From Campylobacterota bacterium (lineage in GTDB: Bacteria; Campylobacterota; Campylobacteria; Campylobacterales; Arcobacteraceae): a stretch of DNA of 64,000 bases. Within the stretch, counting starts at the first letter, position 1. Each line of letters begins with the position of its first letter. The notes under the pieces are model-generated. The model worked only from the letters and a program-made list of their open reading frames with translations, searched no databases and was not told where the DNA came from. The stretch spans positions 1,926-65,925 of the forward strand of contig JAYEKV010000160.1 in the NCBI GenBank assembly GCA_034716855.1, read 5' to 3'. A program made the position numbers and the translations under genes. Of this stretch, positions 50,139-52,037 are shown one piece after another.

Positions 50139-52037
50139 TTATCCTTGTTGTAATTCATCTGCTGAAACTGCTAGATCTTCAATATAATCACCCATCTCTG
50201 CTATTGTGTCATTTATAAGTGATGCCGCATGTTTTGATTCTTCAGTATTTTGAAGTGACTGCTGTGCTGCACCTAGTATTTGAGTACTTGCTGTTAATGC
50301 TTCTTCAATAGAACACTTATTTTTTTCGTTTGCTATTTTTAAACCGTTAAAAGCTTCTATTATTTTTTCTACATTTGTTATAGCTCTTGAAGCTTCATCT
50401 TTTAACATATTTACAGTAATAAGCTCTTGTTCTTGATTGTTCATAGTTGTTTCCCAGATAGTATCAATATTTTCTATCTCTTCATCAAGGCTGTCCATAA
50501 CATCCTGAACCTTATCCATATTATTCCCGGCATCCTGTGCAAGACTTCTGATATCTCCACTTACAACGGCAAAACCTTTACCGCTTTCACCTGCACGAGC
50601 TGCTTCTACACTACCGCTTACTGCCAGCATTGTAGTTTGAGCATTTGTATTTACAATTTTTACAAGTGTCTTATTGATCTTATTTGCTTCTTTGTCAACA
50701 AGTCTCATCTGCTTACTTGTAACTTTACCCTCAACAACACTCTCATCTGTAAATTTATGAGTTTCATGGAGTTCTGATTCAACATCTTTTAAATATTTCG
50801 CTGTTTTATCAAGGAAATCAATAACCTCTAAAGTATTATCTAAAAGTTCATTTTGTATATCCAATGAATCTTCTGCAAATTTTTGATTTACACTAGATTC
50901 TTCAGAAGTTATCTGTGCTGCTCCTTCTATTTGTTCTAAAGCAATTACCGACTGCTGCATAGATTTTTGTATCTCTTCAACTACACTTATAAGCTCTTCA
51001 GCCGCCGTAGAAATCTCTTCAGCATCTTTTGAGGCATCTGTTGAGTTCTTTAGCTCTTCTGCAAGTTCAGACAATCCACTTGCCGCTTCTTCTGATTCAT
51101 GAAGTGCATTAACCTGCATCTCTATAGAGTTTGTGATCTGTGCAACGGCACTTGCACTCTCCTCTGCCGCACTTGCAATAGATTCACTACCTTTATTGAA
51201 CTCCTGTGCTTTATCTGCAAGATCTTCAAACTTTTTTACACTTGAAATTATTATATCAATGGCAGTTTGGATACTTTCCATAGAACCTTGAATGTTTTTG
51301 GTAATAGATTCGCCAAGGTCTGAAGAGTTGATAATAAGTGAAGCAACTGTTTGAATATTGTTCTCAACTTTTTCAATAGATTCTTGAATATTGCTAACAA
51401 CTTCTCTTATCACATCTGCATATGTTGTAGATACAGCAGCAAGCTCTCTTGTCTCAGCTGCAACAACTGCAAAACCTTTACCCTGCTCTTTTGCTTTTGC
51501 TGCTTCAATTGCCGCATTTAATGCAAGTAGATTTGTCTGGTCTGCAATCTTTGCGATCAAACCAACTGCCTGACCGATATTGTCACTGGCTTTTTTCATA
51601 TCTGCACTTTTTTCTTGTACATTTGTAACAGTTTGTGAAGCTAGCTGCATTCTATTTGCAGTTTCTATAACTTTCTCGCCACCCTCTTCAACAACAACTT
51701 TTGTTGATGAAGCCAAAGCAACAGATTCATTTAACTCTCTCATTGTTTTTTGAATAGATTGATTTAGCTGAGTAACAACTTTTAAACTTTGCTCAGATGC
51801 ACCTGCGTTTTGTTCACTGGCAGCTGCTATTTGTTCCATAGCACTTTTTAACTCTTCAATAGCACTAACGCTCTCTTGAGCTTTTCTTAAAATTTCTGTT
51901 GATACACCGTCTATAGCTTCAGATATCTGCTGTTGCTTTGCCAATGTTCTGTTTCTTTTTTTATTTACCACATCACTTCTTTTTGATTTTACTCCACCAA
52001 TATTAGATGATGCGGTATTATGTTCTACGAAAGCCAT
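50139..52037 (-). CDS. Soluble methyl-accepting chemotaxis protein with two tandem signalling domains
   Basis: 632 aa with no TM segment. Two MCP hairpin-tip motifs are present (...[31 protein letters not shown] and ...[31 protein letters not shown]). Confidence 0.85.
   Translation of the reverse strand: [632 protein letters not shown]

Follow-up and report, generated by a model that had tools for sequence, protein, structure and literature searches.

A 64,000-nucleotide stretch of Campylobacterota DNA from contig JAYEKV010000160.1 (the window) carries a chemotaxis operon. One gene of this operon (50139-52037) encodes a soluble chemoreceptor of 632 residues with two methyl-accepting chemotaxis protein (MCP) signalling domains in tandem, as seen from the open reading frame (ORF), Pfam matches and AlphaFold2 models. 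It is likely (probability about 0.8) that this is a receptor of the DosM family: a sensor-less protein with a double signalling domain, which is a marker of F9 cytoplasmic chemosensory systems. Positional orthology, a spacing of exactly 300 residues between the two hairpin tips and an F9-type gene order support this reading, which a first-pass annotation of the sequence had already offered. The F9 class is said to go back to Wuichet and Zhulin in 2010, and DosM of Vibrio cholerae was reportedly described by Briegel et al. in PNAS in 2016. The DosM-type architecture is already published and catalogued, including in Campylobacterota, and is not new. The less ordinary feature of the system is the apparent exchange of a triple-domain CheW (CheW3) for a CheW that carries a CZB domain, rather than the receptor. 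Coordinates are those of the window; all features are on the minus strand unless stated otherwise.

Receptor composition and signalling domains

Ala, Glu, Ser and Gln abound in the receptor, whose 632 residues include no proline. The highest 19-residue Kyte-Doolittle mean is 0.98 and is located at the first tip motif. The usual threshold for a transmembrane segment is about 1.6; the maximum is far below this, so the receptor has no membrane segment. MCPsignal is the sole Pfam family over threshold (155.9 bits, in four stretches), and no sensor domain scored over cutoff in the Pfam scan of the full receptor. The first-pass annotation had described a protein with neither membrane nor sensor parts, and the hydropathy, the lack of proline and the Pfam result all agree with it.

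The protein was cut at residue 334, and each half was scanned separately against Pfam. Both exceed the MCPsignal gathering cutoff of 34.6 bits, with 102.5 bits (E = 3e-29) for the N half (residues 1-334) and 68.6 bits (E = 7.7e-19) for the C half (residues 335-632). These are the two independent matches that had been expected. The two halves are 27% identical to each other (E = 3e-13), and the gaps in their alignment resemble whole-heptad steps.

Two modelled hairpins

A full-length AlphaFold2 model was built from a 30-sequence family alignment. It has a mean predicted local distance difference test score (pLDDT) of 86.8 and is helical from residue 21 to residue 631; the helix is broken only at residue 182, in tip 1, and at residues 331-334 (NSTD). 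DSSP reads residues 335-631 of this model as one helix and leaves tip 2 ambiguous. Because no break was seen at tip 2, residues 335-632 were also modelled alone. The C-half model (pLDDT 88.1) has helices at positions 2-148 and 153-297 of its own numbering, and it turns at full-length residues 483-486 (G-E-S-G), which are within the tip 2 motif. It superposes on the hairpin of Bacillus subtilis McpB over 296 columns, with a query-normalised TM-score of 0.88 and a root mean square deviation of 2.8 Å, and on Thermotoga maritima TM1143 over 297 columns. The full-length model matches McpB and TM1143 over 310-328 columns, which is the length of one hairpin.

In the models, then, the receptor chain is made of four long helices which form two complete MCP hairpins, and a conserved four-residue junction lies between them. 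Hairpin 1 (51048-51977; residues ~21-330) consists of an N-arm, tip 1 and a C-arm, with model helices at 21-181 and 183-330. Hairpin 2 (50142-51035; residues 335-632) consists in the same way of an N-arm, tip 2 and a C-arm. The N-S-T-D break between them (51036-51047; residues 331-334) is, in the full-length model, the one place between the tips where the chain is not helical. The arms are 146-154 residues long, or about 21 heptads each. Judged by length and superposition, each hairpin has roughly the length of a complete 44H-type cytoplasmic domain, which we take both TM1143 and McpB to be; PDB sequence alignments are too gapped far from the tip for reliable heptad counting. The MCP heptad classes are said to have been set out by Alexander and Zhulin in 2007. 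Two full hairpins had been proposed from the letters alone, with the second tip inside one of them. The two modelled hairpins and the fit on McpB and TM1143 bear this out, and the second tip lies at the U-turn of the C-half model.

Residues 1-29 of the receptor (51951-52037) form a disordered, basic N-terminus. An antisense ORF of 116 codons (50427-50777, plus strand) also lies inside the receptor gene; its translation is rich in Cys, Phe and Ile and of low complexity, and most likely it is an ORF that occurs by chance on the AT-rich complementary strand.

Tip motifs and tip spacing

The tip 1 motif has 37 residues (51438-51548; residues 164-200) with its turn at about 182-184. The tip 2 motif has 36 residues (50538-50645; residues 465-500), turns at 483-486 and has an invariant core. 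Both were reported verbatim in the first-pass annotation, although the nucleotide ranges it gave were slightly too wide. Both tips are unchanged throughout the 30 relatives, which reach down to 39% identity; in tip 1 this applies to T168-A179 and G186-A193. The two tips differ systematically from each other, with NLLALNAA in tip 1 and MLAVSGS in tip 2. The divergent tip 2 signature, MLAV[SN]G, is also found in homologues from Acidobacteriota and Alphaproteobacteria, and the tip 2 core is as invariant as that of tip 1, both within the family and across phyla.

All two-tip homologues that were read have a distance of exactly 300 residues from tip to tip, and 146-148 residues follow tip 2 in each. 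These homologues come from Campylobacterota, Microvirga and Bradyrhizobium and include two Acidobacteriota proteins (loci L001-L006 and L083-L085). TM1143 has arms of ~152 residues and a hairpin ~225 Å long, a rise of ~1.48 Å per residue. At this rise, 300 residues are predicted to span ~44 nm if fully extended. An invariant 300-residue spacing in four bacterial groups is strong sequence-level support for DosM as a fixed-length spacer.

Conservation and descent

A protein with 100% identity to the window receptor occurs in a Campylobacterota metagenome-assembled genome. Full-length relatives fall into more than 180 sequence clusters; they are 627-654 residues long and 39-96% identical to the window receptor, with 96-100% coverage. 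Their sources are independent assemblies from NCBI, JGI, ENA and Logan; among the relatives are proteins from the complete genome of an isolate, Arcobacter sp. FWKO B (CP041403), and from Sulfuricurvum and Sulfurimonas genomes. After the tips, the best-conserved parts in the 30-member alignment are residues 30-40, the surroundings of NSTD and the C-terminal 12 residues; in the model, these three regions meet at the inter-hairpin junction. The junction itself, LKNSTD..AEEI, is conserved: S332 is invariant and T333 and D334 are nearly so.

The window is part of a metagenome-assembled genome, and it might be asked if two ordinary receptor genes have been fused by a missed stop codon or frameshift. 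The chance of such an assembly or annotation artefact is negligible: the same uninterrupted protein of 627-654 residues occurs in the more than 180 clusters and in the complete Arcobacter sp. FWKO B genome, the supposed point of fusion is among the best-conserved parts of the receptor, membrane and sensor modules are missing from both halves, and the tip spacing does not vary.

The first domain of the window receptor (D1) scores 102-129 bits against the D1s of Acidobacteriota and Bradyrhizobium proteins and 55 bits against its own second domain (D2). For the window D2, the scores are 69-93 bits with foreign D2s and 40-60 bits with D1s. D1 thus pairs with D1s and D2 with D2s across phyla, and the duplication therefore predates these phyla. 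These scores support the view that the window protein belongs to the DosM family by descent and does not merely resemble it. The taxa concerned, and their gene orders, are listed in the published table of DosM proteins (PMC9321776 S6 Table).

In a profile search across phyla, the best 120 matches were all from Campylobacterota. A genome scan for V. cholerae DosM gave mostly ordinary receptors among the matches listed, with no DosM from Campylobacterota or Vibrio among them. One locus from Vibrio mimicus (L071) was considered as a DosM and rejected; it encodes a PAS-containing MCP with a single signalling domain and lies outside any che cluster.

Methylation sites

Candidate methylation sites were sought with the consensus [ASTG][ASTG]xx[EQ][EQ]xx[ASTG][ASTG], by regular expression and by conservation in the 30 relatives. 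In the N-arm of hairpin 1 there is a segment like a methylation helix (51798-51878), with Glx-Glx pairs at residues 54/55, 61/62, 68/69 and 75/76. The pairs at 54, 61, 68 and 75 are spaced exactly seven residues apart and each is kept in 27-29 of the 30 relatives, a pattern which is that expected of a methylation helix. The last pair belongs to a strict consensus site at residues 71-80 (AASEQNAGA, E75/Q76), kept in 26/30 relatives. In the C-arm of hairpin 1, a second strict match (51147-51176; residues 288-297; SAAEESASA, E292/E293) is kept in 23/30. E75/Q76 and E292/E293 mirror each other, as each is 108.5 residues from tip 1. No conserved consensus site was found in hairpin 2 by either approach. 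Predicted methyl-acceptor sites of the consensus type are therefore present on both arms, in hairpin 1 only.

Methylation motifs had been suggested earlier for both hairpins. AASEQNAGA and SAAEESASA fit the consensus; TAAEELIS and GAAQQSLQ do not. TAAEELIS had also been placed in hairpin 1, but its residues (344-351) fall beyond the inter-hairpin break and so belong to hairpin 2.

The two hairpins are, to judge from these motifs, not equivalent: hairpin 1 has the predicted methylation sites and a canonical tip, and hairpin 2 has a tip variant which is found family-wide. Hairpin 2 could then be seen as a decayed duplicate, with only hairpin 1 engaging CheA/CheW and being methylated, and hairpin 2 acting as a structural tail or as a binder of something other than the baseplate. 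The weaker match of hairpin 2 to MCPsignal (68.6 against 102.5 bits) points the same way as its missing consensus sites and its divergent tip signature. However, the core of tip 2 is held as strongly as that of tip 1 in the family and across phyla, and the exactly conserved length of hairpin 2 speaks for a constraint of geometry, for example the need to reach a second baseplate. Decay is accordingly improbable, and the DosM reading is preferred.

The operon and its surroundings

The order of genes is CheY, CheA, receptor, CheW-CZB, CheB, HEAT-repeat protein, CheR, ParA-like ATPase and response regulator. They are tightly packed, with intergenic gaps of -1 to 18 nucleotides. The first gene encodes a CheY-like single-domain response regulator (54812-55180; Response_reg, 91.5 bits). 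It is followed by the histidine kinase CheA (52037-54793), in which Pfam identifies Hpt, dimerisation, HATPase and CheW-like P5 domains; its gene overlaps that of the receptor by one nucleotide. After the receptor come the CheW adaptor split by CZB (49365-50135), CheB (48294-49358), which is a methylesterase with a receiver domain, a HEAT-repeat protein of ~210 residues (47650-48294; HEAT_2, 52.4 bits) and the methyltransferase CheR (46828-47646). CheB and CheR are identified by Pfam. Both enzymes are encoded in the receptor's own tightly packed operon, as had been claimed. The next gene encodes a ParA/MinD-like ATPase (46060-46815), recognised by Pfam and by its deviant Walker A motif, KGGVGKT. 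A second single-domain response regulator (45671-46057; Pfam), two nucleotides further on, is the last tightly linked gene.

A HEAT protein is found at the same position between CheB and CheR in L002, L084, L085, L087 and L088, and in the Acidobacteriota locus L004. Its gene probably corresponds to the unnamed gene written as '.' in published F9 gene orders. A gene for a ParA-like ATPase is also present in the clusters of L083, L084, L085, L086 and L087.

A phmmer search of the 64-kb window found no second receptor and no other CheW. Three signalling genes flank the operon: 44421-45428 encodes a response regulator of 335 residues with an unassigned C-terminal region; 42172-43833 encodes a protein with PAS and HD/HD_5 domains, possibly of the cyclic-di-GMP phosphodiesterase type; and 55780-56898, on the plus strand, encodes a receiver-HATPase hybrid. 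It is possible that these are outputs or inputs of the system. In L084, two soluble receptors with MCPsignal and CZB domains (1-3301) precede the CheW3-bearing cluster. In L002 (7562-7990) and L085 (8564-8989), a small stand-alone PAS protein is encoded immediately upstream of the receptor. These upstream genes are candidate sensor partners; the window has no equivalent of them.

A CheW adaptor split by a CZB domain

The F9 class has two signatures, DosM and CheW3, according to a survey from 2022 (PMC9321776). Beside the window receptor there is, in place of CheW3, an adaptor of 256 residues in which a zinc-binding CZB domain, of a zinc/redox-sensing type, is inserted into a single CheW fold. 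Positions 1-70 of the CheW profile correspond to residues 2-71, the CZB domain occupies residues 79-146, and positions 69-129 of the CheW profile correspond to residues ~191-252. The scores, 69.9 bits for CheW and 38.1 bits for CZB, are both over their cutoffs. Two motifs of the adaptor, DPHxCxLGxWL and the His-cluster HHKxLH, are kept in orthologues. The 64-kb window has no other CheW, and no other sensor module can be recognised in the operon.

The kind of CheW that adjoins the receptor varies among the relatives. Where the receptor is at least 57% identical to that of the window, all five loci (the window itself, L001, L083, L086 and L087) have the order CheA-DosM-CheW::CZB and no CheW3. 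Where it is at most 48% identical, four of five loci (L002, L084, L085 and L088) have a CheW3 of 458-477 residues; the fifth, L089, has a CheW of 260 residues in which CZB was not called. The 458-residue neighbour in L002 was confirmed to have three CheW domains. L002 also has a CheW-CZB gene after CheA; this gene probably represents W1 in the gene order as published. The type of CheW beside the receptor thus tracks receptor phylogeny in the loci compared, and the subclade of the window appears to have lost CheW3 and to have moved the CZB-bearing CheW next to the receptor.

CheW-CZB alone has precedent, and so does DosM with a single-domain CheW alone; no description of the combination of DosM with CheW-CZB, or of CZB inserted inside the CheW fold, was found. 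DosM has no sensor, which makes the CZB domain of the sole adaptor the obvious candidate for the input, as a conjecture. A tentative and rather doubtful extension of this is that the F9 system has been rebuilt in this subclade: CheW3 is lost; zinc, redox or hypochlorous acid would be sensed at the level of the adaptor in the baseplate and passed to CheA; DosM would be purely a ~44-nm strut, methylated on one hairpin only; and the ParA-like ATPase would partition the array.

An F9 version in which the adaptor has the only recognisable sensor, and which occurs in a cultured Arcobacter, offers a simple handle on what F9 cytoplasmic arrays sense. The receptor itself is nothing unusual for its family; with it, a catalogued group gains one more Campylobacterota metagenome-assembled genome, and no open question turns on it. 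For the specialist, the value lies in the exchange of CheW3 for CheW::CZB, the exact 300-residue spacing and the asymmetry of the hairpins.

Proposed arrangement of the receptor

By homology to V. cholerae DosM, the window receptor would be a homodimer in which two four-helix bundles lie end to end as a rod, and both ends of the rod would carry a kinase-binding tip. The two tips would enter separate CheA/CheW baseplates, and the rod would be the fixed-length strut of a two-layered cytoplasmic array. CheR and CheB would act on hairpin 1 only, as the distribution of consensus sites suggests. The receptor has no sensor; its input would accordingly be supplied by other soluble receptors whose genes lie elsewhere, or by the adaptor itself. 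The ParA-like ATPase probably has a role in placing or partitioning the array, like that of PpfA in Rhodobacter sphaeroides, and the output would pass through the CheY-like response regulators.

The same chain could also be folded as a pseudo-dimer. It would turn back at NSTD so that the hairpins lie side by side in one four-helix bundle of ~22 nm, with two non-identical tips at the same end, facing one baseplate. Hairpin 1 ends, and hairpin 2 begins, on the side away from the tips, and a linker of four residues permits a turn of 180 degrees. The arm lengths match (147 and 149), so the tips would be level, and the difference between NLLALNAA and MLAVSGS could mean a division of labour within one bundle; the operon's CheW, moreover, has a single domain and is not a CheW3. 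Against this, the homologous protein of V. cholerae has been placed by cryo-electron tomography (cryo-ET) as an extended rod across both baseplates (PMC7534058), the window protein is a positional orthologue within the same family, and relatives of identical geometry adjoin CheW3 or CheW4. The folded-back form is thus unlikely, and the extended DosM rod is preferred.

Several points nevertheless weigh against the window protein being such a DosM. The second F9 signature, a multi-domain CheW (CheW3 or CheW4), is absent from the operon and from the 64-kb window. The window also holds no partner receptor, and V. cholerae DosM needs other receptors: it fills only every other trimer there (PMC7534058). 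The extended conformation is assumed by analogy with the work in V. cholerae, and the likeness to V. cholerae DosM is one of architecture, gene order and published description. The predicted span does not agree either, being ~44 nm here and 35 nm between the array baseplates in V. cholerae (PMC3964821); this would mean a shorter Vibrio protein or a rod that is less than fully extended.

Comparison with known systems

DosM (VC1403) of V. cholerae cluster I has two signalling domains and seems indispensable to the cytoplasmic array (PMC7534058). Cryo-ET with flexible fitting gave an extended rod with one signalling domain for each CheA/CheW baseplate (PMC7534058). DosM is tabulated in 72 of 2781 species, and 98% of its homologues have only the two signalling domains, with no transmembrane or sensory part (PMC9321776). 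Like the Vibrio protein, the window receptor is soluble and sensor-less and has its two MCP signalling domains in tandem. The gene order in V. cholerae is [DosMW3B.RYA.YM] (PMC9321776 S6 Table). In both systems CheW, CheB, an unnamed gene and CheR come after DosM, and CheA and CheY are in the cluster. The F9 core order of DosM-CheW-CheB-(gene)-CheR, plus CheA and CheY, is thus present in the window. The differences are that CheW is triple in V. cholerae and here is single with an inserted CZB, that CheY and CheA are upstream of the receptor here and downstream there, and that a ParA-like ATPase belongs to the operon here. The window system is assigned to F9 on synteny and receptor orthology only.

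Within the phylum, Sulfuricurvum sp. 17-40-25 and Sulfurimonas gotlandica GD1 are listed with the F9 order [DosMW3B.RY.YAW1] (PMC9321776 S6 Table). The same order is found around window relatives at 40-42% identity (L002 and L085), and CheW3 adjoins the receptor in relatives at 47-48% (L084 and L088). Relatives of the window receptor named Sulfuricurvum or Sulfurimonas are 40-48% identical to it over 96-100% of the length; they have the same length and the same 300-residue tip spacing. The published clusters differ in that CheW3 is beside DosM and a separate W1 follows CheA, whereas the window subclade is without CheW3. In the Acidobacteriota locus L004, the receptor is followed by a four-domain CheW, CheB, a HEAT protein, CheR and CheA. 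This parallels the W4 cluster listed for Paludibaculum (PMC9321776 S6 Table).

A DosM cluster with a single-domain CheW is known from Caldicellulosiruptor. Its order, 'DosMW1BA.RY.M', has DosM followed by that CheW and by CheB, CheA, CheR and CheY, and there is no CheW3 in the cluster (PMC9321776 S6 Table). It belongs to another phylum, however, and is mostly a second cluster beside one which contains CheW3. No CZB insertion is reported in its CheW, as far as the two can be compared by description only.

CheW-CZB proteins make up 1.4% of CZB proteins and are most abundant in Clostridia (Perkins et al. 2021, PMC8262984); they are also listed among known CheW fusions (PMC10653840). The window adaptor, whose CZB domain keeps the conserved Cys/His zinc-ligand motif, is likewise a combination of CheW and CZB. 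It differs in having CZB in the middle of CheW rather than appended to it, and the literature catalogues the architecture without functional study and without a link to DosM.

In R. sphaeroides, the ParA-like protein PpfA positions and segregates the cytoplasmic cluster via the N-terminus of TlpT (PMC3964821). There, as in the window, the genes for a soluble receptor array and for a ParA-like ATPase go together. Unlike the window receptor, TlpT has only one signalling domain, and the R. sphaeroides arrays are curved. By analogy with PpfA and TlpT, it may be conjectured that the ParA-like ATPase of the window interacts with the basic N-terminus of the DosM-like receptor.

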